Of a stretch of 64,000 nucleotides of DNA, positions 1 to 45,392 are shown piece after piece. The DNA comes from Candidatus Omnitrophota bacterium. GTDB lineage: Bacteria > Omnitrophota > Gorgyraeia > Zapsychrales > Zapsychraceae. The stretch covers positions 551-64,550 of the forward strand of contig JAGVNC010000028.1 of assembly GCA_020053475.1 (NCBI GenBank), read 5' to 3'. The notes below the pieces were generated by a model. It searched no databases. It had not been told where the DNA came from and was given only the letters and a program-made list of their open reading frames with translations. Made by a program: the position numbers and the translations under genes. Position 1 is the stretch's first letter. Every line of letters begins with the position of its first letter.

Positions 1-1835
1 ATATCCGCCGAGAGTTTGGCTTCATACTGAAGGACCGACTTGTATTGGTCAAGATAGGTGTCATTCCGGGACTTTAATTCCGTTTTATTTAAGACTCCCT
101 GTTTTTCAAATAGCTTAGCCACATTAGGATCATCATTAAGGGCCGCTAAGGCTTCGGGCGTGCTAACTAAATTAGGAAGGCCTCTTTTCTTGGCTTCTTT
201 GACCCATTCTTCGGTGTAGTTATCACCGTTAAAGATGACCCGTTTATGTTTTTTGATAATGTCTGAAAGCGTTTTTTGAACAGCTTTATTAAAATCTTTC
301 TTATCTTTTTTGGCTTGTTCAAGTTCGTCACAGATCTCATCGACGGCCTCAGCAACGATCGTATTTAATATAATGTTGGCACCCGCTAAACTCATCCCGG
401 ATCCGACGGCTCTAAACTCGAATTTGGATCCCGTAAAAGCGAACGGGGATGTTCTGTTACGATCCGAAGCGTGGCGAGGTAACGCCGGTAGCGAATCAAC
501 GCCGACTTCCAACGAACCGCCTTGTTTCGTGCTCTTCGCTCCGCCTTTTTCGATCTGTTGGATAATATCCATCAGCTGTTCGCCCAAATAAATGGAGATG
601 ATGGCGGGAGGCGCTTCATGCGATCCTAAACGATGATCATTGGCAGCCGAAGCGACAGAAGCTCTTAACACATGAGCATACGTGTCGACAGCTTTGATCA
701 CGGCACATAAAAAGATTAAAAATCTCTCATTTTCATGAGGATTGTCGCCGGGAGATAACCAGTTCTTGCCATCGGGACCGGTCATCGACCAGTTGCAATG
801 TTTTCCGGACCCATTAATCCCGGCAAACGGTTTTTCATGCAAGAGACAAGCGAGCCCGTGTTTTTCGGCCACTTTTTGCATCACTTCCATGCATAACATG
901 TTGTGATCAACGGCCAAGTTTTGATTTTCAAAAACCGGAGCGACTTCATACTGCGAAGGGGCGACTTCATTATGGCGCGTTGTCGTCGGAGAACCAAGCC
1001 TCCACATTTCGCGATCTAAGTCTTCCATAAACCCGATGATCCGCGTTTTAATGGCCCCAAAATAATGATCCGCCATTTGCTGATGCTTGGCTGGTTCCTT
1101 ACCGAACAATGTACGGCCGGTTTGGATCAGGTCGATTCTTTTATTGTAAAATTTACGATCAATTAAGAAATATTCTTGTTCTCCTCCCAATGTTGAATAA
1201 GCTTTGTTGGTGATTTTTAATCCCAACAACTTTGCCAACCGTTCCGCTTGGATGGCGAGAGCCTTGATGGATCGAAGGAGGGGTGTTTTCTTATCCAGCG
1301 CTTCTCCCTTCCAGCCGATGAAATACGTCGGGATACAAAGAGTGGCGCTTTTCACCCCTTCTTTAATAAACGCAGGGCTTGTGGGATCCCATCCGGTATA
1401 TCCTCGAGCTTCAAATGTCGGCCTTAATCCGCCGGAAGGAAAACTAGAGGCATCAGGTTCGCCCTGAATCAGCTCTTTGCCAGAAAAATCAAGGATACAG
1501 CTGCCTTCCCCGTCCGGCTTGACAAAAGAGTCATGTTTTTCAGCCGTAAGGCCGGTCAGCGGCTGGAACCAATGGGTAAAATGTGTTGCGCCCTTGTTCA
1601 GCGCCCAATTCTTCATCGCATCGGCAACTTCATCGGCAATGCTGGGATCCAGTTTCCCGCCATTCTTGATTGTTTCACTGATCGATTTATAGGCTTTTTC
1701 GGATAAATAATTACGCATCGTCTTCAAACTAAAAACGTTTTGACCGTAATATTCCGTTATCGAATTCGCACCTTCCATGCCCTTTTCTCCTTTGCTTGTT
1801 GTAAAATCAATTCCTTGCAATCTCGATGGATTCAT
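1..1835 (-). CDS. glnN: Glutamine synthetase type III (GlnN), N-terminal ~610 aa; 3' end of the gene lies off the window. Start ATG at 1833-1835 with RBS GGAGAAACG.
   Basis: Minus-strand translation from 1835 reads [95 protein letters not shown]..., which is typical of the GS type III N-terminus. It has no stop inside the window, so the ORF track omits it. Confidence 0.8.
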
Positions 1836-2527: not shown

Positions 2528-3766
2528 TTAGTCTAGAACGGTATAAGCAACCTCGTGATGTTGGGTCAAGTCAAGGCCGATGGCTTCATCTTTATCAGCC
2601 ACTCGAAGGCCCATAACGACATCGACGACCTTGGCGATGATAAACGTCGCAACGAAGCAGTAAACAACCGTAATGCCGACAGCAATAAGCTGTTTAGCCA
2701 CTAGCCCAGCGTTGCCGTAAAATAACCCATCGGCTCCGGCGGGATTAATCGTTGTTGTGGCAAATAATCCGGTTGCAATGGCCCCCCAGGCTCCTCCAAT
2801 GCCATGGACGCCAAAGGCATCCAGAGAATCATCGTAGCCTAACTTAGGTTTCACCACACCTACCGCAATAAAGCAGAACACACTAACTAATAAACCAATC
2901 ACAATGGCGCCCATCACGTTGACAAAACCAGCGGCCGGAGTGATCGCAACCAATCCTGCGACAATGCCAGTAACGGTCCCGAACATCGTCGGAGAACCAT
3001 TAAACTTCCATTCCAACAGCGCCCAACTTAACCCCGCCGCAGCAGCAGCGGTATTGGTAACGACAAACGCGCTAACGGCAAGGCCATTGGCGGCCAAGGC
3101 ACTTCCGGCATTGAACCCAAACCAACCGAACCAAAGAAGCGCGGCGCCTAAGACCGTAAAGGGAAGATTGTGCAAGGGCATTGGTTTATTTTCATATCCT
3201 TTTCTTTTGCCTAAAACGATCGCCATGACCAAAGCAGCAATCCCAGCATTGATATGGACAACAGTTCCGCCGGCAAAATCCAAAGCTCCTAAATTACGGA
3301 TAAATCCGCCCACGGCCCAAACCATATGACAAATCGGGGCGTAAACAAACGTTGCCCACAAGACGATGAAGACCAAAAAGGCCGAGAACTTCATTCTTTC
3401 CGCAAAAGCCCCAATAATCAACGCAGGCGTGATGATGGCAAACATGGCCTGGAAGATCATGAAGGCCTGATGGGGAATCGTGGCTGAATAATCCGCATAA
3501 GGTTCTAAGCCGACACCGTTCAATCCCGCCCAGCTCAATCCTCCGATAAAAGAATTGCCCGGACCAAACGAAAGGCTATACCCAAAAAGCACCCACTGCA
3601 GGCTCAACACGCATAATACGGTGAAGCATTGCATCAAAACACCTAAAACATTTTTCCGTCTGACCATGCCTCCATAAAAAAAGGCCAATCCCGGCGTCAT
3701 CAACATGACCAGCGCTGTCGACGCGAGCACCCACGCTGTATCCCCGCTATTAATCACTGCTTCCAT
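2528..3766 (-). CDS. amtB: Ammonium transporter AmtB, 412 aa.
   Basis: Polytopic membrane protein with Amt-family motifs (FGFNAGSA, GAIAERM-like AFAERMKFSAF). A strong RBS AAGGAGGAGG precedes the ATG at 3764-3766. Confidence 0.9.
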   Translation of the reverse strand: MEAVINSGDTAWVLASTALVMLMTPGLAFFYGGMVRRKNVLGVLMQCFTVLCVLSLQWVLFGYSLSFGPGNSFIGGLSWAGLNGVGLEPYADYSATIPHQAFMIFQAMFAIITPALIIGAFAERMKFSAFLVFIVLWATFVYAPICHMVWAVGGFIRNLGALDFAGGTVVHINAGIAALVMAIVLGKRKGYENKPMPLHNLPFTVLGAALLWFGWFGFNAGSALAANGLAVSAFVVTNTAAAAAGLSWALLEWKFNGSPTMFGTVTGIVAGLVAITPAAGFVNVMGAIVIGLLVSVFCFIAVGVVKPKLGYDDSLDAFGVHGIGGAWGAIATGLFATTTINPAGADGLFYGNAGLVAKQLIAVGITVVYCFVATFIIAKVVDVVMGLRVADKDEAIGLDLTQHHEVAYTVLD

Positions 3767-4251: not shown

Positions 4252-5493
4252 TTATTTCTTTTGATGCTGAAGCTCATCCATCAGGATAATCGATTCGGAG
4301 ATATCTTTCATGGAACGGCAGGAATCCATGCTCTTTTTGTGAATCAATTTGTAGGCCGCTTCTTCCCCCAGATTGTTTAGCCGCATCAAAATCCCCTTGG
4401 CGCGTTCAACAATTTTACGCGTTTCTAAGGCTTCCTTCGCTTTAATGGCTTCTTCCATGAGTTTAGTGTTCTCAACGGCCACGGCCGCTTGGTTGGCGAC
4501 CATCTGCAAGATATTGATTTCGTCTTCGATAAAGGCATGGGGCGCCTTGGTATAAGTGCTAATAACCCCAATGGCCTTATTCTTCACGATCATGGGGACC
4601 GCCAACATGGATGTCAAATTTTCGCGCACCGCCAATTCACGAAATCGATATTCCTTTTCCTGGCGGACGTCATAAATCGAGATTGGTTTTCGTTCCCGAA
4701 TGACCTTGCCGCTAACACTGTCGTTGACTTTTAAATTAGGCTTCTTTTTATATTCTTCGCTTAAGCTCTGGGTGGCTTTAATGACTAATTCGTTGCCCTT
4801 TTCGTCCAACAACATAATCGAGCAAATCTTGGAATTGAGCATTTCCGCGGTCACAACGACAATCAGATTAAGAATTTCATCCAAATAATCCGGCGAGGTG
4901 ATGGATTGACTGACTTTGTTGAGACTATCAAATTGAAGGGCCTTTTTTTTCGTTTCTTCATAAAGATGGGCATGGGCGATGGTTCCGCTGATCTGCTTGG
5001 CAATCAGGGAAAGCAAGCTAATGCTGCTGGGGGTATAATCATGGGGCTTTTTGTGCTGGACGGTAACAACACCAATGGCGTTTTTTTTATACACAATCGG
5101 TACCGAAAGAAAGGCTTCGTAGCGATCTTCCGGCAGCACATCAATCTTTTTAAAACGTTTGTCACGATAAGCGCCTTTCTTGATAGCCACAAATTCATTT
5201 TCTTGGGCCACCCAACCCGTGATCCCTTCTCCCGCTTTGAGGATCACCTTGCCCAACTCTTTCTGGTGAGGGATTTTAGACGCCCGCAAAACAAGATTTT
5301 CTTTTTTCTCGTCGAAAAGATAAATAAACACCGAATCCGCCCGTGTCACTTCATTAACGACTTTGACAACTTCATTTAAAATAAAGTCCAAATTCAGCTC
5401 AGAATTGGTAATTTCCACGATCCGTCTTAACACCTTCAATTCTTCCGGCTGGCTGATGCTTAATTTTTTACTTTTTGTGTTTTCTCGGCCCAT
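4252..5493 (-). CDS. GAF-GAF-ANTAR RNA-binding response regulator (transcription antiterminator), about 413 aa. ATG at 5491-5493 with RBS AAGGGG. The ORF track begins 5 codons earlier at TTG 5508.
   Basis: The C-terminus ETRKIVERAKGILMRLNNLGEEAAYKLIHKKSMDSCRSMKDISESII matches the ANTAR consensus (ERAKGiLM, EeAY, smD). Two GAF-like domains lie upstream. Confidence 0.75.
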   Translation of the reverse strand: MGRENTKSKKLSISQPEELKVLRRIVEITNSELNLDFILNEVVKVVNEVTRADSVFIYLFDEKKENLVLRASKIPHQKELGKVILKAGEGITGWVAQENEFVAIKKGAYRDKRFKKIDVLPEDRYEAFLSVPIVYKKNAIGVVTVQHKKPHDYTPSSISLLSLIAKQISGTIAHAHLYEETKKKALQFDSLNKVSQSITSPDYLDEILNLIVVVTAEMLNSKICSIMLLDEKGNELVIKATQSLSEEYKKKPNLKVNDSVSGKVIRERKPISIYDVRQEKEYRFRELAVRENLTSMLAVPMIVKNKAIGVISTYTKAPHAFIEDEINILQMVANQAAVAVENTKLMEEAIKAKEALETRKIVERAKGILMRLNNLGEEAAYKLIHKKSMDSCRSMKDISESIILMDELQHQKK

Positions 5494-5537: not shown

Positions 5538-5738
5538 ATGAATATCCTTCTCGCCATTGTCATCGTTGCCGGATGCTTTGCCTTCATGGGCATCGGCCTG
5601 CTGTTGGCCAAAAAATCCCTGAAAAGAGGCTGTTCCGTCGATCCTGATGCCTGCGCTTGCCGCAAAGAGGGCAAGGATCCCGCCTCTTGCGATCAAGAGA
5701 CAACAGCGAATTCCCCCAAAACAAATCCCTCAATCTAA
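5538..5738 (+). CDS. nqrM: Small membrane protein with a C-terminal 4-Cys motif, NqrM-like (DUF539, Na+-NQR maturation), 66 aa. The ORF-track start at 5475 would overlap the ANTAR regulator gene and was not used.
   Basis: MNILLAIVIVAGCFAFMGIGLLLAKKSLKRGCSVDPDACACRKEGKDPASCDQ... One TM helix plus four conserved Cys, adjacent to the nqr operon. Confidence 0.5.
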   Translation: MNILLAIVIVAGCFAFMGIGLLLAKKSLKRGCSVDPDACACRKEGKDPASCDQETTANSPKTNPSI

Positions 5739-22554: not shown

Positions 22555-22745
22555 ATAAAAATCCCCGCCTGTGCCGTCGGAGCAGATAAGTGGTGAACCA
22601 GTTCACCAAGTGGGAGCCTCTTTAAGCTGTCCAAGGACAGCCTAAAAGATAAGCGATTGGCGGCTTATAAAAGCCGGCAATATGTCCCTTAACAAAAGTA
22701 TTGGTTCTTTTAATCATGCCCCTAACGTACACTGCAGGGATTTAA
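22555..22745 (-). ncRNA. ssrS: Candidate 6S-like regulatory RNA of about 190 nt. It has its own extended -10 promoter and 5'/3' ends that form an irregular closing stem of at least 20 bp. It is upstream of the ygfA (MTHFS) gene.
   Basis: Promoter TGaTATAAT (22750-22758, inside the 3' end of pheT). The predicted 5' end AAAUCCCUGC pairs with GCGGGGAUUU at the 3' end, followed by UUUUAUG. Three perfect internal hairpins lie at 22588-22603, 22626-22641 and 22657-22676. The conserved ssrS-ygfA synteny comes from established knowledge. Confidence 0.4.
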
Positions 22746-27105: not shown

Positions 27106-28836
27106 TTAATTTTTGTCTTTAATTTTTTGCTGAATCATTGTTAAAAACTCGTTGAACAACATCCCGCCTTTTTCGCCTTCATGATAAGAACGAACAGCCA
27201 TTTTCTTCTCTTGTTTTTCTTTGTCCCCCACAACAAGAATGTAGGGAATCTTGCGGACCGTGGCTTCACGCACACGCTTGCCTAAACTTTCGTTTCTGTG
27301 GTCAATTATAGCGCGCACGCCATGGCTTTGTAAATTCTCTTTTAATTCTTCTGCATACCCATAATGATTTTCTCTGATGGGAATAATCGCCGCCTGAACC
27401 GGTGCCAACCAAACCGGGAATGCCCCGCCGTAATGCTCGATCAGCGTCCCCAAGAAACGCTCTAGGCTCCCTAAAATCGCCCGATGGATCATGATCGGGG
27501 AGCTTTCCCCTCCGGATTCGTTGATATACCCTAATTTAAACCGCTCCGGTAATGAAAAATCGCATTGGATCGTCGCACACTGCCATTGTCGCTTGATCGC
27601 ATCGCGCAATTTAATGTCAATTTTCGGGCCGTAAAAGGCGCCTTCCCCTTCGTTAATCTGATACGTTAATTTCTTTTCTTCCAATGCGGCTTGCAACGCG
27701 CGCGTGGCCGTTTCCCAATTTTTTAAACTTCCGATATATTTTTCCGGACGCGTACTTAATTCAATGTCTATGTCTTTGAACCCAAAATCATTCATCACCT
27801 CAAACACAAAATCAATAACGCCTTCGACTTCTGCCTTGACTTGATCCTCTCGGCAGAAAATGTGGGCGTCGTCCTGGGTAAATCCCCGGACACGTAAAAG
27901 CCCGTGCAAAACACCGGCCTTTTCTCGACGATAAACAGTTCCTAATTCAAAATAGCGGATCGGCAGGTCACGGTATGACCGCGTCTTGGAGCGATAAATC
28001 AGGATGTGCCCCGGACAATTCATCGGCTTGACCGCAAACTCTTCGTTATCGATTTTGAACAAATACATATTCTCGCGATAATGCTCAAGATGCCCGCTTT
28101 CTTCCCACAATTTATTCTTTAACAAGTGCGGAGTCATGACCAAGTCGTACCCGCGGGCCAAATGTTTTTCACGCACATAATCTTCGATGATCTTACGAAG
28201 CATGGCACCCGCCGGATGATAAAACACAACCCCTGCCCCGGCAGATTCGTGATAAAAATTGAAAAGGTCTAATTGCACGCCTAATTTACGGTGGTCGCGT
28301 TTTTGCGCTTCCTCTAACATCTTAAGATGTTCATCGAGTTCTTGTTGGCTAAAAAACGCGGTGCCATAAATCCGTTGTAATTTGGGCTTTGTTTCATCGC
28401 CGCGCCAATAAGAACCTGCCACTGACAGCAATTTGAATGCCTTGATCTGCCCTGCGTTATCGACGTGCGGCCCCTTGCAAAGATCAAACCATTCCTTGCC
28501 GGTATTAACAATAGATACTTCCTTGTCGGGGATGCCTTCGATCAGCTCAACTTTATAATTTTCCTTCATTGTCGCAAAGAGATTGATCGCTTCGGCGCGT
28601 GACAGGGACGACTGCGTAAATGCCGGCTTGCGCTCAATGATTTGGCGCATGGCCTTTTCAATCTTTTTCAAATCCTCGTCGGTAAATGGCTCGGCGCGCT
28701 CGAAATCATAATAAAATCCGTTATCGATGGCCGGGCCGATGGTCACCTTCACCTGTGGCCAAAGCTGTTGGACCGCCTGGGCCATCACGTGAGAGCAACT
28801 ATGGCGTAATTTGTCTAAATCTGTTTTATATTCCAT
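27106..28836 (-). CDS. thrS: Threonine--tRNA ligase, 576 aa. It begins at the editing (N2) domain and has no N-terminal TGS domain.
   Basis: HSCSHVMAQAV editing motif and class II catalytic motifs, upstream of infC. Confidence 0.9.
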   Translation of the reverse strand: MEYKTDLDKLRHSCSHVMAQAVQQLWPQVKVTIGPAIDNGFYYDFERAEPFTDEDLKKIEKAMRQIIERKPAFTQSSLSRAEAINLFATMKENYKVELIEGIPDKEVSIVNTGKEWFDLCKGPHVDNAGQIKAFKLLSVAGSYWRGDETKPKLQRIYGTAFFSQQELDEHLKMLEEAQKRDHRKLGVQLDLFNFYHESAGAGVVFYHPAGAMLRKIIEDYVREKHLARGYDLVMTPHLLKNKLWEESGHLEHYRENMYLFKIDNEEFAVKPMNCPGHILIYRSKTRSYRDLPIRYFELGTVYRREKAGVLHGLLRVRGFTQDDAHIFCREDQVKAEVEGVIDFVFEVMNDFGFKDIDIELSTRPEKYIGSLKNWETATRALQAALEEKKLTYQINEGEGAFYGPKIDIKLRDAIKRQWQCATIQCDFSLPERFKLGYINESGGESSPIMIHRAILGSLERFLGTLIEHYGGAFPVWLAPVQAAIIPIRENHYGYAEELKENLQSHGVRAIIDHRNESLGKRVREATVRKIPYILVVGDKEKQEKKMAVRSYHEGEKGGMLFNEFLTMIQQKIKDKN

Positions 28837-28850
28837 AAGTTTGTTGCTTG

Positions 28851-28913
28851 TCCCGTGGAAGGCTTCGCCTTCCCGGGATTTAATCCCCGAAATCGCCTTG
28901 CGATTTCAGGGGA
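28851..28913. repeat. Triple-hairpin repeat element, copy 1: GGAAGG-N5-CCTTCC, GGGATTTAATCCC, GAAATCGC-N4-GCGATTTC. It sits 15 nt upstream of the thrS start.
   Basis: Plus strand tcccgtggaaggcttcgccttcccgggatttaatccccgaaatcgccttgcgatttcagggga. Copies also occur at 29151-29213 (inverted) and 34147-34210. Confidence 0.7.
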
Positions 28914-28999
28914 TCGCTTGTCGCTTGTCGCTCGAGAGACGAGAAACCAGCAACTAGCGACAAAATCTGGTGGACCCGAGAGGAGAACCTCAAACCAAA

Positions 29000-29074
29000 T
29001 GGACCCGACAAGACTCGAACTTGTGACCTTTTCCATGTCAAGGAAACGCTCTAACCAAACTGAGCTACGGGTCC
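29000..29074 (-). tRNA. tRNA-Val (anticodon GAC).
   Basis: The reverse complement folds as a cloverleaf: acceptor GGACCCG/CGGGUCC, anticodon loop UUGACAU, T-loop UUCGAGU. Confidence 0.85.
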
Positions 29075-29150
29075 GGATTTAAATTCGAAATCCAAATCTC
29101 GAAATTCGAAACATCTGTTTCGTGCTTCCCCGGCCCGCGGCTTTTAGCCG

Positions 29151-29213
29151 TCCCCTGAAATCGCAGAGCGCTTTCGGGGATTAAATTCCAGAAAGGCTTT
29201 GCCTTTCATGGAA
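29151..29213. repeat. Triple-hairpin repeat element, copy 2, in inverted orientation, between tRNA-Val and tRNA-Leu.
   Basis: tcccctgaaatcgcagagcgctttcggggattaaattccagaaaggctttgcctttcatgga is about 85 percent identical to the reverse complement of copy 1. Confidence 0.65.
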
Positions 29214-29260
29214 CAAAGCGGCGGGGCGGGCGGATTTCGTATTGAGAATTTTTTTACACA

Positions 29261-29343
29261 TGGGCAAGGAGGGAGTCGAACCCTCACAGCCTTACGGCCA
29301 CAGGATTTTAAGTCCTGCGTGTATGCCATTCCACCACTTGCCC
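29261..29343 (-). tRNA. tRNA-Leu (anticodon UAA), class II with a long variable arm.
   Basis: Reverse complement GGGCAAGUGGUGGAAUGGCAUACACGCAGGACUUAAAAUCCUG...GGUUCGACUCCCUCCUUGCCCA, with anticodon loop CUUAAAA. Confidence 0.85.
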
Positions 29344-29449
29344 AGTAAAATCAGCGACCAGTGGTCAGTGCACAGTGATCAGAAAAGGAATATCGCGCAT
29401 GTTCGTATCTTTCTGGCCACTGACAACTGAACACTCTCCACTAAACTTA

Positions 29450-29521
29450 AGGCGCGAATCGGAATCGAACCGATGTATAGTGGTTTTGCAGACCACTGCC
29501 TTACCACTTGGCTATCGCGCC
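29450..29521 (-). tRNA. tRNA-Cys (anticodon GCA).
   Basis: Reverse complement GGCGCGAUAGCCAAGUGGUAAGGCAGUGGUCUGCAAAACCAC...GGUUCGAUUCCGAUUCGCGCCU, with discriminator U. Confidence 0.85.
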
Positions 29522-29536
29522 ACGTTCAAATATCAA

Positions 29537-30079
29537 TCACACAACTCTTGTGACGGCTTGGACAATATCTTCCACGTCGGCGATATGGCCATCATCGGTG
29601 ATGCCGCAAGCCAAATTCCCCTTCACCGGTTCAATAAATTTAATCCCGTATTTTTTAAGCTTAGCGCAATTGTCCTGCACAATCTTATTTTGATACATAT
29701 GGGTATTCATGGCAGGAGCAATCAGGATGGGTGCTTGAGTTCCCAAAAGAATGCATGTCAATAAATCATCGGCGATGCCGCAAGCAATTTTTCCGATAAT
29801 GTTGGCAGTGGCGGGCGCGATCAAAACACAATCGGCACTTTCGGCCAATCGAATGTGGGGCATTTGCCAGGCCGATGCCGCATCCCTCAAGGACGAACGA
29901 TAAACCTCTTCTCCGGCGAGACTTGATAATGTTAAAGGCGTAATAAAGTGTTCGGCCGATTCGCTCATGACCACAGAAACGTTATATCCTTTTTCCTGGA
30001 GTCGGCGCAAAATATCGGCAGCCTTATAAGCTGCGATGCTCCCCGTTACACCTAAAATAATCCGCTTATGTTTATTCAC
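29537..30079 (-). CDS. coaC: Phosphopantothenoylcysteine decarboxylase (CoaC flavoprotein domain only), 180 aa.
   Basis: N-terminus ILGVTGSIAAYKAADILRRL and the PAMNTHMY motif. No fused CoaB domain. Confidence 0.75.
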   Translation of the reverse strand: MNKHKRIILGVTGSIAAYKAADILRRLQEKGYNVSVVMSESAEHFITPLTLSSLAGEEVYRSSLRDAASAWQMPHIRLAESADCVLIAPATANIIGKIACGIADDLLTCILLGTQAPILIAPAMNTHMYQNKIVQDNCAKLKKYGIKFIEPVKGNLACGITDDGHIADVEDIVQAVTRVV

Positions 30080-30097
30080 GACGAACCATCTTTTGGG

Positions 30098-30343
30098 TTA
30101 TTTTTTCTTAGATTCTTTTGAAAGGGCTTCGGTTCGATCAGCGGCGGCTTGTTTGGTCATAACCTTGCCTTTGAGGATTTCTTCAAGGGCAATGGTTGTT
30201 GTTTTCTCGGACATAGACATTTCGACTAATTTCGGTTTTCCCTCAGCCAGTTCCTGCGCACGTAAAGCAGCCAATCGCACTAGTTTATAAACGCTCCACT
30301 CTGCCCTGGGTAACAAATTCTCGATGGGTTGTCTCATCGTCAT
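30098..30343 (-). CDS. rpoZ: DNA-directed RNA polymerase subunit omega, 81 aa.
   Basis: SVYKLVRLAALRAQELAEG matches the omega consensus. Downstream of gmk (gmk-rpoZ synteny). A candidate promoter TTGACA-17-TATATA lies in 30344-30501. Confidence 0.8.
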   Translation of the reverse strand: MTMRQPIENLLPRAEWSVYKLVRLAALRAQELAEGKPKLVEMSMSEKTTTIALEEILKGKVMTKQAAADRTEALSKESKKK

Positions 30344-30501
30344 AAATATTTCTCCTTTTAAAAACCAACGACTTAATAAAATATAGTTTTAGTATTATAT
30401 ATATCCAAGAAATAGGGACTATATATAGCATAAGCCTTTCGTCTTGTCAATCTTCCCATCAGGCGGGCCTGAAAAAGCGAGCTTGGCCCGGGAGTGGCTC
30501 C

Positions 30502-31074
30502 TTAGCGCTGGACGATCCTTAAGATGAGCTTCGCAAGTTGTTGATAACAGCTGGAAAAATTGTCATTCACAATCACATAGTCGTATTCGCGGGCTTGTTT
30601 CATTTCTTCGCTGGCCACTTTCATGCGCAGGGACAGGCTTTGGTTTGTTTCGGTGCCTCTTTGCTTTAAGCGTTCCTTCAAAATAGCCAGGGATGGAACT
30701 TTGACAAAAATAGTGATGGCATGCGGCAGTTTTCGGCGGACGACATTGGCCCCCTTGACATCGATTGTTAGCAAAACGTTTTTGCCTTCTTTTAATAAAT
30801 CCTTCACACCCTTTTGGGGCGTGCCGTAGTAGTTACCAAAAACTTTTTGCGATTCCAGAAAATGCCCCGACCGTTTTTTGAATAAAAAGGCCTTGGGGCT
30901 GATAAAAAAATAATCCCGGCCATGTTTTTCTCCAGCCCGTCGGGAACGTGTCGTGATCGACACACAGCGGATCAAACGCCCGGACAGTCTTTTACTCGCC
31001 AAGATTTTCTGATAAAGTGTCGTTTTCCCGGATCCGGAAGGCCCGGAAAGAATGATGATTTTCCCTCGACGCAT
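30502..31074 (-). CDS. gmk: Guanylate kinase, 190 aa.
   Basis: P-loop IIILSGPSGSGKTTL and guanylate kinase core. Confidence 0.9.
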   Translation of the reverse strand: MRRGKIIILSGPSGSGKTTLYQKILASKRLSGRLIRCVSITTRSRRAGEKHGRDYFFISPKAFLFKKRSGHFLESQKVFGNYYGTPQKGVKDLLKEGKNVLLTIDVKGANVVRRKLPHAITIFVKVPSLAILKERLKQRGTETNQSLSLRMKVASEEMKQAREYDYVIVNDNFSSCYQQLAKLILRIVQR

Positions 31075-31127
31075 GGATGGCGATGAACCCTTCTTCCTTG
31101 GAAGGCTAACAATGACGCATCGAGAAG

Positions 31128-31949
31128 TTACTCGACGTTTTGTGCCTGTTCGCGGATTTTTTCTACTTTTCCTTTCAGGGCAATCACCTGATTGGAAACA
31201 ATTTTATCTTGTAATTTGGACCCGATGGTGTTGGTTTCCCGCTGCATTTCTTGAGCAATAAAGTCAATTTTCTTGCCAATCGCCGCAGAACTTTTCAACA
31301 GAATCTTCATCTCTTCGACATAATGCCTGAGCCGCATCAACTCTTCGCTGACATCGTTACTTTTACGAAAAGAAACGATTTCATCATGCGTTAATATTTT
31401 TTGCTTCTCACGTAAAATATGGCCATAGCGCCCTTGAATTTTTTGGATCCGCTGTTGCATGCGCCGTAAAAGGACATTAATGTCCGCCGCCAAACTCTTG
31501 CCTTCCCGCAGGCGCATGCGTACCAAATCGTTCAAGGCTTGATCGATAGAACGACGGAACGCCGGCCATATCGCATCTGGGTCGATGAATGTTTCCTTGG
31601 CCTCAACAACACCCGGGAGCTTGACGACATCCGACAATGTTAGATCATTTTCAAACCCAAATTCACGCTCTAGTTGATGAATAAACTTTAAATGTTGACG
31701 GACAATATCTTTGTTTAACGATACAGCAATGGTGGGTTTTTCGATAATTTTAAAATTGACCGTAATGCGCCCCCGTTCGATGTGTTTTTGCAACAAGCTG
31801 CGCAAACGATCTTCGAATGCGGCGAATCCCCCGGGAAGATAAAATGTCACATCAAAATAGCGGTGATTCAATGTTTTGATTTCGACCAACGCCCTTAACT
31901 TTCCAACGGCCACTTCTTTGGTACCAAACCCTGTCATCCCCTTAATCAT
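31128..31949 (-). CDS. yicC: YicC-family protein (YicC_N plus DUF1732), about 273 aa. Start MIKGMTGFG at 31947-31949; it overlaps the ndk stop codon.
   Basis: The MTGFG N-terminal motif is typical of YicC. Confidence 0.7.
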   Translation of the reverse strand: MIKGMTGFGTKEVAVGKLRALVEIKTLNHRYFDVTFYLPGGFAAFEDRLRSLLQKHIERGRITVNFKIIEKPTIAVSLNKDIVRQHLKFIHQLEREFGFENDLTLSDVVKLPGVVEAKETFIDPDAIWPAFRRSIDQALNDLVRMRLREGKSLAADINVLLRRMQQRIQKIQGRYGHILREKQKILTHDEIVSFRKSNDVSEELMRLRHYVEEMKILLKSSAAIGKKIDFIAQEMQRETNTIGSKLQDKIVSNQVIALKGKVEKIREQAQNVE

Positions 31950-32434
31950 GAACGTCCCTTCGCTTTTGATTGTTGAATATGTTGAGAAAAGCCGCGCACT
32001 TCCGCCGGGGTAAACCATAAGCGTATTTCCCGTCGCGCCTCTTTCGCATTCGACGAAACATGGACAACATTTTCATAAACGCCTTTGGTCGTGATGCGCC
32101 CAAACGCCCCTCGAATGCTGCGCGGGTTGGCTTCCTCGGGGTTCGTGGCGCCGGCAATGGCCCGGCAGCGTTTGATGGCCTGGTCTCCATAATACACCAT
32201 CACCAAAACACTCCCAATCCCATTTAATTTTCCCGACAAATAATTAATAATCTCTTCGAAAAAAGGCTTGTTCCTTAATTGTTCATAATGCGCCGCGGCC
32301 AACGCCCGCGTAACTTTCGCCATCTTAATCCCGACGAGTCTTAAAAAAGGAGTGTCGTAACGATCCAAGACGGGGCCGATGAGCCCTCGCTGAATGCCGT
32401 CCGGCTTAATAATGACTAAGGCTGATTCGTTCAT
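31946..32434 (-). CDS. ndk: Nucleoside diphosphate kinase, 162 aa.
   Basis: LVIIKPDG... and NVVHVSS (the active-site His region), with a short C-terminal extension. Confidence 0.8.
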   Translation of the reverse strand: MNESALVIIKPDGIQRGLIGPVLDRYDTPFLRLVGIKMAKVTRALAAAHYEQLRNKPFFEEIINYLSGKLNGIGSVLVMVYYGDQAIKRCRAIAGATNPEEANPRSIRGAFGRITTKGVYENVVHVSSNAKEARREIRLWFTPAEVRGFSQHIQQSKAKGRS

Positions 32435-33288
32435 TTGTGCGAAATGGTTCTAACAATGCGATCCAGATCTTCTAGCGAATAATATTCGATCATGATTTTC
32501 CCGCGCTTCACTCCTCCGGCGATCGTCACCTTGGTCCCTAAAAGTTTTTGTAGCCCTTCTTGGAGAGTCGCGATCTGGGGGTGTTGTGCCATCGATCGTT
32601 TTTGTCGACGAGACTCTGGTTTTCCGGCGTTGACCAAGCGTTCCGTTTCACGCACGGACAATTGTTTTTTGACAATCAATTGATAAATCCTCTTCATCTC
32701 GGACGTTGAGTCCGCGGACAATAACGCCCGGGCGTGCCCGACGGAAACAACATCTCCGTAAAGGCTTTTCTTAATCTCTTCGGGTAAATTCAGCAAGCGC
32801 AGCATGTTGGTGATCGTCGAGCGGTCTTTCGCGACCGATTGGGCGACTTCGTCATGTGTGTAATGGAACTCCTCAATCAATTTTTTATAGGCTTCCGCCT
32901 CTTCCATCGGATTTAATTCCTGCCGCTGAATGTTTTCAATCAAGGCAATCACCAAGGCTTCCCTGTCAGTCACATCTTTGACAATGGCCGGTACTTGCGT
33001 TAACCCCAACGCGCGCGCTGCTTTTAATCGTCTTTCTCCGGCAATGATTTCATATCCCGTATCGGTGCGACGAACCAATATCGGCTGCAAAACACCTTTC
33101 TCTTTAATCGACGCTTTTAATTCATCGAGCTTGTTCCCATCATAATTTGTCCGCGGCTGAAGACGACTGTCTTTGATGAGTTCAACTTGTAAAAAATTCA
33201 CCCCATCTTCCTTTGAAGCCGTGGCCTTTTCGGGAATGAGCGCCGCTAATCCTTTTCCCAATGCTTTTGACATGATCACATCCTCCAA
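32431..33288 (-). CDS. parB: Chromosome partitioning protein ParB (Spo0J), 285 aa.
   Basis: ParB-box motif IIAGERRLKAARALG and an HTH. Confidence 0.9.
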   Translation of the reverse strand: MEDVIMSKALGKGLAALIPEKATASKEDGVNFLQVELIKDSRLQPRTNYDGNKLDELKASIKEKGVLQPILVRRTDTGYEIIAGERRLKAARALGLTQVPAIVKDVTDREALVIALIENIQRQELNPMEEAEAYKKLIEEFHYTHDEVAQSVAKDRSTITNMLRLLNLPEEIKKSLYGDVVSVGHARALLSADSTSEMKRIYQLIVKKQLSVRETERLVNAGKPESRRQKRSMAQHPQIATLQEGLQKLLGTKVTIAGGVKRGKIMIEYYSLEDLDRIVRTISHK

Positions 33289-33330
33289 GTGTTCAATAAT
33301 TGAACATTATTTAACATCCCCAATATTCAT

Positions 33331-34137
33331 TTAGGCCTCAGCCTTGACATTTCCCAACTTATTGGTATTAAATGATTTATATTCTTTTAAAAATTCGCGC
33401 GCGAGTTCATCATATTTCTTAGAGCCGATCGATGCTGGATCGTATTGATTAATCGGCTTCCCAAAGCTGGGCGCTTCACTTAATTTAACATTGCGAGGAA
33501 TAATCGCTTTGTAGACTTTATCTTTAAAATGATTTTTAATTTCATTAATCACTTCTTCGGTTAAGTTGGTACGAAAATCGGCCATCGTTAACAAAACGCC
33601 TTCGATGTGTAAATGAGGATTGAGGCTGTCTCGGATCAGACTAATTGTACTTAAAAGCTGTGATACCCCCTCTAGGGCGTAAAACTCACATTGGATGGGA
33701 ACAAGAATCGAATCGCACGCAACTAACGAATTCAAGGTTAAAAGGCCCAAAGATGGCGGCGAATCAATGAAGATGTAATCATATTGATCTTTGATTGAGT
33801 CCAAAGCTCTTTTGAGTCTTGTTTCGCGAGAAATGGCGCCGGCAAGTTCAATTTCGGCGCCGGTTAGATTGATATTACAAGGAAGGATTGAAAGGTTGGG
33901 ATAGGCGGTTTGAAGAATGACATCGGCGATTTGCGATCTATTAAGTAGAATCTCGTAAACAGAGGATCCTAATTCATTTTTGTTGACCCCAATCCCGCTA
34001 GTTGCATTCCCCTGCGGATCAGCATCGACAATAAGCACCTTTTTGCCTAATTCGGCTAAAGCTGCGGATAAATTAACCGTTGTTGTTGTCTTTCCTGTGC
34101 CGCCTTTTTGATTACAAATGCTTATAATCTTGCCCAT
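33331..34137 (-). CDS. parA: Chromosome partitioning ATPase ParA (Soj), 268 aa.
   Basis: Deviant Walker A motif CNQKGGTGKTTT. Confidence 0.9.
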   Translation of the reverse strand: MGKIISICNQKGGTGKTTTTVNLSAALAELGKKVLIVDADPQGNATSGIGVNKNELGSSVYEILLNRSQIADVILQTAYPNLSILPCNINLTGAEIELAGAISRETRLKRALDSIKDQYDYIFIDSPPSLGLLTLNSLVACDSILVPIQCEFYALEGVSQLLSTISLIRDSLNPHLHIEGVLLTMADFRTNLTEEVINEIKNHFKDKVYKAIIPRNVKLSEAPSFGKPINQYDPASIGSKKYDELAREFLKEYKSFNTNKLGNVKAEA

Positions 34138-34146
34138 AGTTTGAGA

Positions 34147-34210
34147 TCCCGTGGAAGGAAAAACCTTCCCGGGATTTTAAATCCCTGAAATCGCAAAGCG
34201 ATTTCAGAGG
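34147..34210. repeat. Triple-hairpin repeat element, copy 3, 10 nt upstream of the parA start.
   Basis: tcccgtggaaggaaaaaccttcccgggattttaaatccctgaaatcgcaaagcgatttcagagga. Confidence 0.7.
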
Positions 34211-34211
34211 A

Positions 34212-34227
34212 TGTTTCACGTGAAACG
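34212..34227. promoter_or_regulatory. parS centromere site TGTTTCACGTGAAACG.
   Basis: 15/16 match to the canonical parS palindrome, upstream of parAB. Confidence 0.85.
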
Positions 34228-34248
34228 TTCATTTATCCAAGATTGGCA

Positions 34249-34264
34249 TGTTTCACGTGAAACA
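34249..34264. promoter_or_regulatory. parS centromere site TGTTTCACGTGAAACA, a perfect consensus.
   Basis: Perfect match to the canonical 16-nt parS, 37 nt from the first site. Confidence 0.9.
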
Positions 34265-34302
34265 TTACCGATAATTCTATTTTCTATGAATTCAGAGAAA
34301 AA

Positions 34303-34509
34303 TCAAGAAAATTGTTGTTTTTCTTTAATGGAGACTTTTATTTTGGCGGGCTTGGCACCCTCCATCCCGAAAAGGCCCTTCTTTTCTTCGCAGACGATCT
34401 TGACGACAATATCATCCCGGGTGACATTAAGAAGCTTAACCGCTTTCTCAATGGCCTCTTCTACGTCACCCCCTTCAACCTCTATGCTTTTGGACACTTT
34501 TTTTCTCAT
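34303..34509 (-). CDS. Jag/KhpB N-terminal-domain-only protein, 68 aa, with no KH or R3H domains.
   Basis: MRKKVSKSIEVEGGDVEEAIEKAVKLLNVTRDDIVVKIVCEEKKGLFGMEGAKPAKIKVSI resembles the Jag_N domain. It occupies the jag position downstream of yidC. Confidence 0.5.
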   Translation of the reverse strand: MRKKVSKSIEVEGGDVEEAIEKAVKLLNVTRDDIVVKIVCEEKKGLFGMEGAKPAKIKVSIKEKQQFS

Positions 34510-36496: not shown

Positions 36497-36991
36497 AGTT
36501 GGACAATTATAACATAGAGCTTTAGGGAGTCAAGGTCTTTCCTTTTTTAGAGGCTCAAAACGTTTGTAAATACAAATAGTTACGGCAATTTTGGAATCAT
36601 CATCCTTCCGACGAGAATCATGGTTGAGTGCCCTTCGGCGCGTTTTGGAAGAAAGAATCTGTCCTTCAATCACTTGCCATCCCGGGGCCGAGGAAAAATT
36701 AATTTGAAATAAAAATTTTCTTTGTTATAATAAAACAACTTTCTGGGATGATCATTCTTTTGTCGCGTAAAATATTGCAAACTTTCCGGATCAATAGAAA
36801 TTTTGCTGTCAACCAAAACATTTTGTGCGCCCTTAAGCGATTGTGAGTCTAAAAAGTTTTGGGCATCGGTTTTGTTTTAGGGTAATTCAGGCTATTCACC
36901 CCTGTGGATAACCTGTGAAAATCTTTTTTAAAAGACTGCAAGGCTATATTTATCAAATATTTACGCTATTAGAATATTTGCATTGCTTTGA
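36497..36991. other. oriC: Candidate oriC region upstream of dnaA. It has a perfect DnaA box TGTGGATAA at 36904-36912, degenerate boxes, and AT-rich stretches around 36695-36745.
   Basis: Consensus 9-mer, the rpmH-dnaA intergenic position, and the flip of gene-strand bias exactly here. Confidence 0.6.
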
Positions 36992-38344
36992 TTGAATGAG
37001 TTCATTATGAGTTTATCCAACGTTTGGAAAAAAGCCCAAGACATGATCAAAGAGAAGGTAGGGACAACCTCTTATGATACATGGTTCTCGACGCTGCAAG
37101 TGAAGGAACAATCCCCGCAAACTCTGGTGATCGAAACCCCGGATGAATTTTTTAAAAGTTGGATTGTCGAACATTATCAACCCTTTATTGATGAAACCAT
37201 CCATTCTTTGCACGAAGGCCCTATTAAGATTGAATATACGGTGAACACCGATTTAATCGAAAAAACCACTCAATCCCGCTTATCGAAATTTGAGCAAACA
37301 TTCGTTGAAGACAAATCGCCGAAAGCGGTATTAAATGCCCGCTTTACGTTTGAAAATTTTGTCATTGGGCCGTCTAATCGATTTGCGTGCGCCGCAGGAT
37401 TAGCCGTCGCCGAGGCCCCGGCCAAAGCATATAACCCTTTCTTTGTGTATGGCCAAGTTGGGTTAGGGAAAACCCATCTGATTCAAGCAATTACCCATAA
37501 AATCCGCCAGCTTAACCCCAGCGCAAAAATTTGTTATATTACCTCGGAGCGGTTCACGAACGAGCTGATTGAGGCGATTCGCCATCAATCCACGCCGAAC
37601 TTTCGGAAAAAATATCGGGAAATTGACGTTTTGCTCATTGATGACATTCATTTTATTGCCGGCAAAGAATCGACCCAGGAAGAATTCTTCCACACGTTTA
37701 ACGCGTTGCATGATAATCGAAAACAAATCATTATTACATCCGATCGGCCGCCCAAAGAAATCACCAACTTAGAAGAACGGCTGCGTTCACGCTTTGCCTG
37801 GGGACTGATTGCCGATGTTCAGCCTCCGGACTTTGAAACGCGCGTGGCAATCTTGCGTAAAAAAATCGAAAAAGAACCCATCCATGTTCCCGACGACGTT
37901 ATTTATTTTATTGCCGAACAGGTGCCCACCAATATTCGTGAACTAGAGGGGGCGTTGATTCGTGTGGCCGCTTATTCATTGTTGGAAGACAAGGTGATTT
38001 CGCTGGAGATGACCAAAGTCGTTCTCAAAGACATGGTGAAGGAGGCCACGAAAATTATTAGTATGGAGATGATCCAAAAATCCGTAGCCAACCATTACCA
38101 GATTTCATTGGCTGAGTTACGCGCCAAACGTCGAAATAAGAACATTGTTTTCCCCCGGCAAATGGCAATGTATTTAGCGCGCCAATTAACGAAAATGTCG
38201 TTACCGGAGATTGGGAACTCTTTTGGCGGGAAAGATCACACAACGGTCTTACATGCCTGTAAAAAGATTGAGCAAGAAATGTTGAAAAGTACCGACATTA
38301 AACACACGATCCTTGAGTTAACTTTAGTTATTAAGAACCCTTAG
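36992..38344 (+). CDS. dnaA: Chromosomal replication initiator DnaA, 450 aa. It may instead start at the Met at 37007.
   Basis: AAA+ Walker A GQVGLGKTHL and the C-terminal DnaA-box-binding domain. Confidence 0.95.
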   Translation: MNEFIMSLSNVWKKAQDMIKEKVGTTSYDTWFSTLQVKEQSPQTLVIETPDEFFKSWIVEHYQPFIDETIHSLHEGPIKIEYTVNTDLIEKTTQSRLSKFEQTFVEDKSPKAVLNARFTFENFVIGPSNRFACAAGLAVAEAPAKAYNPFFVYGQVGLGKTHLIQAITHKIRQLNPSAKICYITSERFTNELIEAIRHQSTPNFRKKYREIDVLLIDDIHFIAGKESTQEEFFHTFNALHDNRKQIIITSDRPPKEITNLEERLRSRFAWGLIADVQPPDFETRVAILRKKIEKEPIHVPDDVIYFIAEQVPTNIRELEGALIRVAAYSLLEDKVISLEMTKVVLKDMVKEATKIISMEMIQKSVANHYQISLAELRAKRRNKNIVFPRQMAMYLARQLTKMSLPEIGNSFGGKDHTTVLHACKKIEQEMLKSTDIKHTILELTLVIKNP

Positions 38345-38494
38345 TCTAGATATCCAAAGGCATTGAACAATTAAAAAGGTTGTAAGTTATTAGAAAAAAA
38401 TATTTTATATTTTTATTAGATTTATCCACAGGCCCTATTACTAAGGCTACTAATTGTTCTTATTAAAATATATAAGTAGGAGGTTGTTAATAAT
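38345..38494. other. AT-rich dnaA-dnaN intergenic region with a perfect DnaA box TTATCCACA at 38422-38430, a candidate DNA-unwinding element and second origin module.
   Basis: Read directly. The 150-nt segment is very AT-rich. Confidence 0.5.
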
Positions 38495-39583
38495 ATGAAA
38501 ATTAAGTGTTCTAAGGATGTTTTAATGCAGGGAGTTCAGGCTGTCCAAAACGTTGTTTCGCCAAAAATTACATTACCTATTCTCTCTAATATTCTTTTAG
38601 AAACAAAAAAGAATACATTGTATTTAACGGCGACCGACTTAGATATTGGGATCTCTTGTGAAATTCCTGTGGAAGTAATTCTGGATGGGGCGATTACGGT
38701 TCCCGCCAAGCGATTTAGCGATATTATTAAGGAGCTGCCTTCCGGAGATGTGGTGGTCCATGCGAAGAAAAATTATCAGGTGGATATTGAAGGCAATAAT
38801 TTTCGATTTAAATTAATCGGGATGCCTAAAGACGAGTTTCCTAAATTCCCCGAGTTTAAAGAAAAAGACATTATTTCTATTGAGCAAAAAACATTAAAGG
38901 AAATGTTGCGGTTAACAAGTTTTGCCGTATCCCACGAGGAATCACGCTATGTCCTCAATGGTGTTCTTTTAGAGGTAGCGGAAAATAAAATCCGCCTCGT
39001 GGCGACCGATGGGAGACGGTTGGCTAAAATTGAAAGAGTCCTTTCTCATCCAACATCCAAAGAGATCACGGTCATCATCCCCATTAAAGCCATTCAGGAA
39101 ATCAATCGTAATTTGAAAGACGAAGGCAATGTGATATTAAGTGTGGGGCTAAATCAAGTGTTGTTTGATGTTGGAGGGATTCTGATTGCCACGCGCATTA
39201 TTGAAGGGGAATTCCCTAATTATCAACAAGTCATCCCAAAATCGCAAGCGGAGAAAATCGTCATGAACCGCCAGGATTTTTTGTCATCGATCCGCCGGGC
39301 GAACCTATTGTCCACGCCGGATTTCCAGGCGGTTAAATTCGAAGTATTTAATAATAAAATGGTGATTTCCAAAACAACACCCGAGGTCGGGGAGTCGCGA
39401 GAAGAGATCCCCATCGAATACGGAGGCTCAGAGCTGGTGGTGGGGTTTAATCCGCATTTTATGATCGATGTGTTAAAAAATATCGAAGAAGAGCAAATTC
39501 ATTTGGAGCTATTGGGGACCGATAAGCCGGGCATCATCCGCCTCAAAGATTATTTATATCTGGCCTTGCCGATGCGTATTTAA
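38495..39583 (+). CDS. dnaN: DNA polymerase III beta sliding clamp, 362 aa.
   Basis: Three-domain beta-clamp sequence with RBS AGGAGG. Confidence 0.9.
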   Translation: MKIKCSKDVLMQGVQAVQNVVSPKITLPILSNILLETKKNTLYLTATDLDIGISCEIPVEVILDGAITVPAKRFSDIIKELPSGDVVVHAKKNYQVDIEGNNFRFKLIGMPKDEFPKFPEFKEKDIISIEQKTLKEMLRLTSFAVSHEESRYVLNGVLLEVAENKIRLVATDGRRLAKIERVLSHPTSKEITVIIPIKAIQEINRNLKDEGNVILSVGLNQVLFDVGGILIATRIIEGEFPNYQQVIPKSQAEKIVMNRQDFLSSIRRANLLSTPDFQAVKFEVFNNKMVISKTTPEVGESREEIPIEYGGSELVVGFNPHFMIDVLKNIEEEQIHLELLGTDKPGIIRLKDYLYLALPMRI

Positions 39584-39602
39584 CCTCAAATGTTGCATTG
39601 CA

Positions 39603-42463
<2,861 letters not shown>

Positions 42464-45128: not shown

Positions 45129-45392
45129 ATGGATAATGAAATTTGGCATGTTTACATTATAGAATGCAAAGATAGCAAACTCTATGTTGGGATTGCTAAG
45201 GATGTTGAAAAAAGAGTTTTATTGCATAACAAAGGGATAGCCTGTAGATTCACAAAATATCGGCATCCCGTAAAATTATTGTATCAAGAGCAATGCTTAA
45301 ATCATGCACTGGCAGCGCAAAGAGAATCCGAAATCAAAGGTTTTTCCAAGAAGAAGAAATTGCAATTGATTAACAAAGATCCTTCGGCCTAA
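45129..45392 (+). CDS. GIY-YIG nuclease superfamily protein (UPF0213/YhbQ-like), 87 aa.
   Basis: WHVYIIECKDSKLYVGIAKDVEKRVLLHNKG is the GIY-YIG core. A promoter TTGACC-16-TATAAT sits at 45053-45080. Confidence 0.65.
   Translation: MDNEIWHVYIIECKDSKLYVGIAKDVEKRVLLHNKGIACRFTKYRHPVKLLYQEQCLNHALAAQRESEIKGFSKKKKLQLINKDPSA

Follow-up and report, generated by a model that had tools for sequence, protein, structure and literature searches.

The 64,000-nt window analyzed here (contig JAGVNC010000028.1 of the Candidatus Omnitrophota assembly GCA_020053475.1, positions 551 to 64,550) carries three copies of a short palindromic element within 5.4 kb: one next to thrS, one within a tRNA operon, and one between parA and parS. 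The element is a double hairpin and probably a dispersed DNA repeat. All genes of the copy-bearing part of the window lie on the minus strand. The features are as follows.

27106-28836, minus strand: thrS, with its ATG at 28836
28851-28913, plus strand: copy 1, 63-nt core, antisense to thrS and 14 nt upstream of its ATG
28914-28957, plus strand: right-hand extension of copy 1 (TCGCTTGTCGCTTGTCGCTCGAGAGACGAG...), also present in a related metagenome copy (L121)
29000-29074, minus strand: tRNA-Val
29124-29238, minus strand: copy 2 in its long form, with a GC-rich stem (CCCGCCCCGCCGCTTTG ... CGGCTAAAAGCCGCGGGCCGGG) outside the core
29151-29213, minus strand: core of copy 2, located between tRNA-Leu and tRNA-Val and oriented in the sense direction of their operon
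29260-29344, minus strand: tRNA-Leu
33331-34137, minus strand: parA, with its ATG at 34137
34147-34211, plus strand: core of copy 3, antisense to parA and 9 nt upstream of its ATG, abutting the proximal parS
34212-34227 (one mismatch) and 34249-34264 (perfect): parS pair, given for context only

Copies of the element and their anatomy

The original prediction, made by reading the sequence alone, had placed three copies of a 63-nt unit in this region. All three were found where it put them, with copy 3 ending at 34211. Its account of their surroundings was also accurate: two copies lie just upstream of start codons, tRNA-Leu and tRNA-Val flank the third, and the copy at parA sits between the parA ATG and the proximal parS, which directly adjoins it. 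Copies 1 and 3 are 83 to 84% identical, and copies 1 and 2 show 80% complementarity across 71 nt. With a covariance model based on 84 related distinct copies, copy 1 scored 85.9 bits, copy 2 scored 79.4 bits, and copy 3 scored 67.2 bits (E values of 5e-20 to 3e-15). This model found no fourth copy in the 64-kb window; the next best match, a weak one of 14.7 bits at 39565-39613, proved to be an unrelated hairpin after dnaN. Two of the copies extend beyond the core. Window positions 28847-28957 aligned with L121 by blastn over 111 nt at 85.6% identity, and because the right-hand extension is common to both, the inserted unit of copy 1 is ∼110 nt long. The long form of copy 2 matched a copy at a non-orthologous locus (L026) over 108 nt at 89.8% identity.

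The core consists of two bulged stem-loops of 12 to 13 bp, A and B. Hairpin A is made up of TCCCG, one bulged base, a variable stem of 7 to 10 bp with a loop of 3 to 7 nt, and CGGGA. A TTWAA linker leads to hairpin B, made up of TCCCY, a variable stem of 7 to 9 bp, one bulged A or T, and RGGGA. In each stem the bulge sits five pairs up, above a conserved base (TCCCN...NGGGA). Copy 1 has TCCCG-T-GGAAGGC/GCCTTCC-CGGGA as hairpin A, TTTAA as linker, and TCCCC-GAAATCGC/GCGATTTC-A-GGGGA as hairpin B; the base of hairpin A in copy 2 carries two compensatory changes (UUCCA/UGGAA). The minimum-free-energy DNA folds of the three copies ranged from −20.8 to −26.4 kcal/mol and the RNA folds (product of the minus strand) from −30.4 to −42.6 kcal/mol, all with two hairpins. 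None of 200 shuffles was as stable, with z scores of −5.4 to −9.2 across copies (z of −7.6 for the −26.4-kcal/mol DNA fold of copy 1). Folded with its flanks, copy 2 formed a three-way junction closed by the GC-rich outer stem (DNA fold, −32.7 kcal/mol).

This anatomy differs from the three consecutive hairpins originally described. The three short palindromes do exist, but two extended hairpins are what both the folds and the covariation favor. The middle palindrome (GGGATTTAATCCC) represents a competing pairing, because its arms draw on the G and C runs that also form the feet of A and B. Sequences that discriminate between the two arrangements (copy 2, L023, and the type of L017b, L059, and L089) keep the long stems and break the central palindrome.

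Covariation was extensive among the 84 copies. Standard pairs accounted for 98.6% of the pair cells, and 14 of the 25 pairs change on both sides, which gave 200 double-change cells compared with only ∼12 cells showing one-sided changes of the G-U type. The observed covariation values were attained in 0 of 500 shuffles. When partners were slid by 1 to 3 columns, the paired fraction was 19 to 63% and the covariation score was 0.03 to 0.09, compared to 0.29 for the true register. The upper stems, of which hairpin A has 23 variants and hairpin B has 17, covary inside each hairpin and not across hairpins, which eliminates a pairing of the 5′ arm of A with the 3′ arm of B. The near-absence of G-U changes suggests that the constraint acts on both DNA strands or on hairpins of single-stranded DNA; such a pattern would be unusual for an RNA transcribed from one strand.

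The core is also approximately dyad symmetric, as hairpin B read on the opposite strand resembles hairpin A, and the bulge bases in its two halves are more often symmetric (54 cases) than asymmetric (25 cases). It is therefore itself an inverted pair of similar hairpins, the doublet arrangement known from repetitive extragenic palindromic (REP) elements, and larger inverted pairs of whole cores occur in L017, L059, L061, and L089. The core is nevertheless polar: with the covariance model the forward strand scored 20 to 30 bits above the reverse strand everywhere, and the reverse strand still reached 38 to 65 bits. Each stem-loop, with its single bulge, has the form of the short imperfect palindrome (20 to 40 nt) that characterizes REP elements. 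No GTAG-type tetranucleotide was present at the 5′ foot of the hairpins, where the conserved feet are TCCCG/CGGGA and TCCCY/RGGGA.

Distribution, longer forms, and insertion sites

Two scans revealed the element outside the window. The first covered one genome per species (185,579 species) with a pattern anchored on hairpin B and returned 28 stretches, 19 of which contained the whole unit; the other nine were chance or unrelated matches. All 19 loci came from metagenome-assembled genomes (MAGs) labeled either Candidatus Omnitrophota or "uncultured Planctomycetales/Planctomycetia," and up to five loci per MAG were recovered by this one strict pattern. At least one locus with the second label, L027, is an Omnitrophota relative, because it is syntenic with the window. 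The second scan, of metagenome contigs, used a pattern that fixed the foot of hairpin A and the center and left hairpin B free; it yielded 107 stretches, ∼100 of them true. The element is thus neither unique to the window nor reducible to its short palindromes, since both scans show the whole unit recurring at unrelated loci in many Omnitrophota genomes. Estimated from extra copies in the flanks of these loci, the number of copies per genome is probably in the tens. The core is conserved across genomes of 37 to 56% GC.

The element had no match in viral contigs, phage records, or plasmid records. Against Rfam 15, none of the copies gave a match at the gathering threshold, and none was obtained even at an E value of ≤10 over positions 28700-34500. 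We found nothing on an Omnitrophota repeat or motif in the searchable literature, including the main Omnitrophota genomics paper, in which RNAs were annotated with Rfam only. A second small palindromic family (TGCCTGCCTGCCGGCAGGCAGG-like) also recurs in Omnitrophota loci, sometimes near the double-hairpin element (L043 at 2645, L071 at 12582 and 13068, L136 at 5670, and L010 at 5610).

In many lineages, an outer stem or a terminal inverted repeat particular to the lineage surrounds the core, resulting in units of 100 to 170 nt. We distinguished a form of ∼100 nt with the outer stem CCCCACCGCTTTGCTTCG...CAAAGCGAAGCAGTGGGG; a form of ∼170 nt bounded by a 12-nt inverted repeat (TGTCATTGCGAG...CTCGCAATGACA), found on at least 12 contigs of one sample; a form of 110 to 140 nt whose outer stem is long and AT rich; and a composite form of ∼250 nt that contains two inverted cores. 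The loci of the last two forms have non-matching flanking genes, and near-identical long forms occur at non-orthologous loci inside a single metagenome or MAG. Thus the termini vary between lineages and the core stays constant, with a clear 12-nt terminal inverted repeat in one lineage only. No target-site duplication was present at the aligned boundaries of two multi-copy lineages or of the MAG long form, and no parent insertion sequence (IS) of the element was seen. Tandem clusters occur in L085, L073, and L014, and tandem or inverted clustering is also found in L017. Two copies (L029, ∼1635-1720, and L129, 4073-4163) contain, at different internal positions, an unrelated short palindrome (CGTCCACAGGACG / GTCCTGTGGAC plus a GC hairpin), which suggests that another small mobile hairpin has nested in the element. 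Among the element-bearing contigs, L023 starts with a perfect 92-nt tandem duplication (1-184) and has 203-nt direct repeats, 90% identical, at 2036-2238 and 4887-5089; each repeat includes a copy of the element, and together they bracket an STT3-like oligosaccharyltransferase gene.

Do the copies keep to particular sites? Comparison with relatives of the window argues that they do not. The window ParA is 99% identical to that of the MAG GCA_030648475.1 (Candidatus Omnitrophota), found by homology; an exact-sequence look-up with the window protein gave no match. The conspecific contig L136 (ParA 99% identical) has copies 2 and 3 and lacks copy 1, with flanks that are ∼100% identical. The spacer between tRNA-Val and the thrS ATG is wholly different in the two alleles (window 28837-28999 versus L136 5545-5750). 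That of L136 contains other palindromes, including CCTGCCTGCCGGTAGGCAGG, that are absent from the window allele, and a Shine-Dalgarno-like AGAGGAGA five bases before the thrS ATG, which the window allele also lacks. Three further relatives (L138, L139, and L140) share the gene order of the window (rpmH-yidC-jag-parA-parB-...-tRNA-Cys/Leu/Val-thrS-infC), with ParA proteins 76 to 79% identical to that of the window, and their syntenic regions contain no copy of the element at all. Their jag-parA spacers measure 33 to 74 nt, compared to 165 nt in the window, and they have a single parS located 8 to 10 nt before the parA ATG, compared to two, 21 nt apart, in the window lineage. Conversely, copies flank tRNA-Glu on both sides in L027, which is syntenic over gyrB-gyrA-tRNA-Glu, and are absent there from the window. 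Since the relatives and L136 differ in their copies at the same sites, the positions beside thrS, parA, and parS are lineage specific; judged from these alignments, they are recent insertion accidents and not conserved regulatory architecture. In the same gyrA-tRNA-Glu interval, the window has a small GIY-YIG-type open reading frame (ORF) (45133-45392, plus strand), preceded by GAGGAGCGAAGCGACGAAGGATC, and the same ORF lies at the matching place in L027 (∼252-520, minus strand).

Sites in other genomes are varied too. The copies are mostly intergenic and dispersed, and among the 46 sites open to classification, 40 are flanked by co-directional genes, 4 by divergent genes, and 2 by convergent genes. 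The neighbors are varied housekeeping genes: the 150 nearest small ORFs fell into 128 Pfam families, and no recurring transposase was found among them. The largest clusters of neighbors, ABC ATPases and class II aminoacyl-tRNA synthetases, are explained by abundance or synteny, so we discarded the idea of a recurrent neighbor family. An association with tRNA genes was rejected as well, since a tRNA lies within ∼350 nt of only about 4 of 60 metagenome loci, no excess over what is expected from intergenic space. Nor is there a fixed place upstream of thrS: in L058 and L130 the element lies downstream of thrS, and in L046 it precedes serS. We also ruled out an intrinsic terminator. No T-run was seen after either hairpin, copies lie 9 to 37 nt before start codons and inside operons, and convergent genes flank only 2 of the 46 sites.

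One copy lies within a coding sequence. Positions 7278-7380 of L080, a locus also represented by L015, are a ∼102-nt long form situated within a pgeF/YfiH-like gene (Pfam Cu-oxidase_4, 1.7e-58). The frame of this gene stays open through the element, which encodes a 34-amino-acid insert (HPHRFASSRERRSLSGIKSPKSLCDFRGQSEAVGV), and homology to the YlmD structure (PDB 6t0y) halts at residue 173 and restarts at residue 222, exactly around this insert. The element therefore combines intergenic copies with an in-frame genic one, as Rickettsia palindromic elements (RPEs) do. In L005 and L038, a cobQ-like ORF may provide a second case: the element lies near its 3′ end, and the frame again continues through it.

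Several other features of the window were recorded. It includes the origin region: the GC skew flips sign at ∼36 to 37 kb, with minus-strand genes to the left (yidC, jag, parA, parB, and onward) and dnaA (36992-38344), dnaN (38495-39583), gyrB, and gyrA on the plus strand to the right. Perfect DnaA boxes are located at 36903-36911, 38422-38430, and 39668-39676. A 6S RNA match on the minus strand (22558-22743) scored 46.5 bits, against a gathering score of 46.4; in the syntenic metagenome loci L064 and L116, a copy of the palindromic element is found near the equivalent position. Many intergenic spacers in these genomes are filled by runs of heptamer-like short repeats of the GCTTGTC, GTCACCA, TCGTATC, and CAGTNAC types, often as inverted pairs. 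Such runs occur in the window at 28914-28932 and 29350-29385, in L027 at 790-856 and 3345-3414, and in L017 at 3442-3517 and 5661-5735.

Nature of the element and competing explanations

With a probability of roughly 60%, we interpret the three sequences as representatives of a palindromic DNA repeat that is dispersed, non-autonomous, specific to Omnitrophota, and of the type to which REP/BIME/REPIN elements and RPEs belong. Direct support comes from the multiple copies at unrelated loci, from their presence or absence at orthologous sites even between near-identical strains, from the tolerance of both orientations, from the in-frame genic copy, and from the lack of any gene of its own. The family is apparently undescribed in Rfam, in phage and plasmid collections, and in the searchable literature. 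Such a repeat would spread as DNA, with its hairpin bases and bulges probably recognized on folded single-stranded DNA by a trans-acting enzyme. This mode of recognition is suggested by the combination of bulged hairpins, an inverted doublet, no target duplication, no gene, and phylum-wide conservation. The most likely enzyme would be an HUH/Y1 transposase, of the RAYT or IS200-like type, because elements of that kind leave no target duplication and persist for long with their host. Copies in transcribed spacers, such as those before thrS and parA, would add a very stable pair of RNA hairpins (−39 to −43 kcal/mol) to the 5′ leader, and these, like the REPs of Escherichia coli, may incidentally alter the processing or stability of the mRNA or the initiation of its translation.

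How close is the element to repeats already known? The REPs and BIMEs of enterobacteria and the REPINs of Pseudomonas are likewise short, imperfect, bulged palindromes that form inverted pairs, occur in multiple copies, mostly extragenic inside or between operons, and are sometimes clustered; they too are noncoding, lack target duplications, are maintained vertically for long periods, and keep their hairpins by compensatory changes. They are mobilized by RAYT, a Y1/HUH transposase. The Omnitrophota element differs from them in that it has no sequence similarity, no GTAG-type 5′ tetranucleotide, and two consistently different hairpins that form a polar unit, lie 5 to 7 nt apart, and often have an extra outer stem; moreover, no RAYT gene flanked by it was found. 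RPEs share its size (∼100 to 150 nt), its palindromic character, and its intergenic and in-frame genic locations, and no RPE transposase is known. In-frame genic insertion is the behavior for which RPEs became known. RPEs belong to another phylum, however, and are unrelated in sequence, and the Omnitrophota element offers one documented in-frame case, with the cobQ-like ORF as a possible second.

Correia/NEMIS, ERIC, and RUP/BOX elements are also small, non-autonomous, dispersed, and of inverted-repeat character. They are often cotranscribed with their neighbors and can change mRNA processing or supply signals. Unlike the Omnitrophota element, in which the termini vary and the internal double hairpin is constant, they have conserved termini, and Correia and RUP elements generate target duplications. 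The subterminal hairpins of IS200/IS605 elements and of their gene-less derivatives (PATEs) resemble the Omnitrophota core in being two imperfect hairpins with an extrahelical base. These hairpins are recognized as folded single-stranded DNA, and insertion leaves no target duplication. Both IS200/IS605 hairpins are read on the same strand, whereas the Omnitrophota bulges lie on opposite sides and the hairpins are mutually inverted. No tnpA or tnpB gene was seen adjacent to the element.

Several observations weigh against a REP-like DNA repeat. First, the orientation at co-directional sites is weakly biased (26 sense versus 14 antisense). Second, the core is conserved over a range of 37 to 56% GC, which is broader than a selfish repeat usually spans and may point to a function for the host. 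Third, we found RAYT-family ORFs on three element-bearing contigs (NCBIfam NF047646; 84.4, 80.6, and 72 bits against a cutoff of 80), located as follows.

L046, 2313-2822: RAYT-family gene
L051, 1166-1720: RAYT-family gene
L094, 166-850: RAYT-family gene

These three genes lie 3 to 6 kb from the nearest copy and are not adjacent to it, and those of L046 and L051 are bracketed by their own, unrelated inverted repeats (GGAAACAGTTTCC-type in L051). No further RAYT was detected with a hidden Markov model built from the genes found, in 0.9 Mb around ∼100 copies, and a RAYT gene flanked by copies of the element was sought and not seen. Because of the distance, the foreign flanking repeats, and the lack of further RAYT genes, the arrangement that defines REP-RAYT systems is missing from the sequence covered. 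The small GIY-YIG ORF was dismissed as a candidate mobilizer, with three occurrences only, two of them at orthologous positions. No mobilizing enzyme could be linked to the element in these searches, and its transposition is deduced from the distribution of copies.

We weighed three other explanations. The element might be a classical miniature inverted-repeat transposable element (MITE), that is, an internally deleted derivative of a DDE-type IS that is moved via its terminal inverted repeats by a full-length IS elsewhere. The lineage with ∼170-nt units bounded by 12-nt terminal repeats is what this predicts, and the size of 100 to 250 nt, the noncoding and intergenic character, and the insertion polymorphism all agree with it. 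However, a transposase that reads terminal repeats should conserve the termini, and we see the reverse, namely variable termini around a conserved and covarying core. With no target-site duplication at aligned boundaries and no transposase recurring beside the copies, we consider a MITE in this sense unlikely.

The original prediction had left the choice between a REP/MITE-like element and a structured RNA motif. Recurrence at unrelated loci and absence from the same sites in relatives favor the former, and an RNA motif now appears improbable. On the RNA reading, the element would be a cis-acting leader, a processing or stabilizing element, or a small RNA family whose hairpins are bound by a conserved Omnitrophota RNA-binding protein or RNase, and its dispersal would be secondary. 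The strong covariation of both helices and the conserved unpaired linker and bulges would be expected of such an RNA. The same is true of the polarity of 20 to 30 bits in favor of the forward strand, the weak sense excess, the very stable RNA hairpins predicted (−30 to −43 kcal/mol), and the location of two window copies in 5′ leaders and one in a tRNA operon spacer. Nevertheless, about one-third of the copies that were classified run antisense to the genes around them, among these two of the three in the window, and the ∼12 G-U cells against 200 double changes better fit a constraint on both strands of DNA. In addition, one copy lies in frame within a coding sequence, the same leaders lack copies in relatives and in a near-identical strain, and the hairpins have no U-tract after them and no Rfam match.

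Finally, a cruciform-prone or dyad-symmetric DNA site maintained by the host for a nucleoid, topology, or segregation protein, perhaps enriched at the origin, is very unlikely: the dyad symmetry with four CCCNTGAAA-like half-sites, the matching bulge bases, the phylum-wide core, and the position of all window copies 2 to 8 kb from the GC-skew switch and dnaA, one of them abutting parS, are in line with it, but a duplex-binding site needs no self-complementary spacer and yet the upper stems covary, loci in other genomes are spread among unrelated genes and not bound to origins, syntenic origin regions of relatives lack the copies, and three points in 5.4 kb of 64 kb make a marginal cluster (∼2% by our own estimate) in a region unusually rich in noncoding spacers.

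Implications for Omnitrophota genomes

Omnitrophota are uncultured, mostly ultra-small bacteria known solely from metagenomes, and to our knowledge no repeat family has been described for them. What sets the family reported here apart is that its double-hairpin core is polar and retained throughout the phylum, that its outer stems are modular, and that one copy is inserted in frame within a gene. There is a small chance that the core is the recognition module of a trans-acting protein conserved throughout Omnitrophota. This protein could be an enzyme that mobilizes hairpin DNA and is unrelated to RAYT, or a host factor that domesticated the repeat, for instance for RNA processing or for chromosome organization near origins and parS. 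If such a conserved partner protein exists, the family would be more than a REP look-alike, and a new mechanism would follow only if that protein turns out to be new.

For a phylum-specific repeat such as this, the covariance model has several uses. It explains contig breaks and spurious small ORFs in MAGs, marks insertion polymorphisms at the strain level, and warns annotators that the hairpins before thrS or parA are not regulators. It also offers a way to search for the enzyme responsible for moving the repeat. With the in-frame copy in an enzyme gene, a phenomenon first described in Rickettsia is extended to another phylum.

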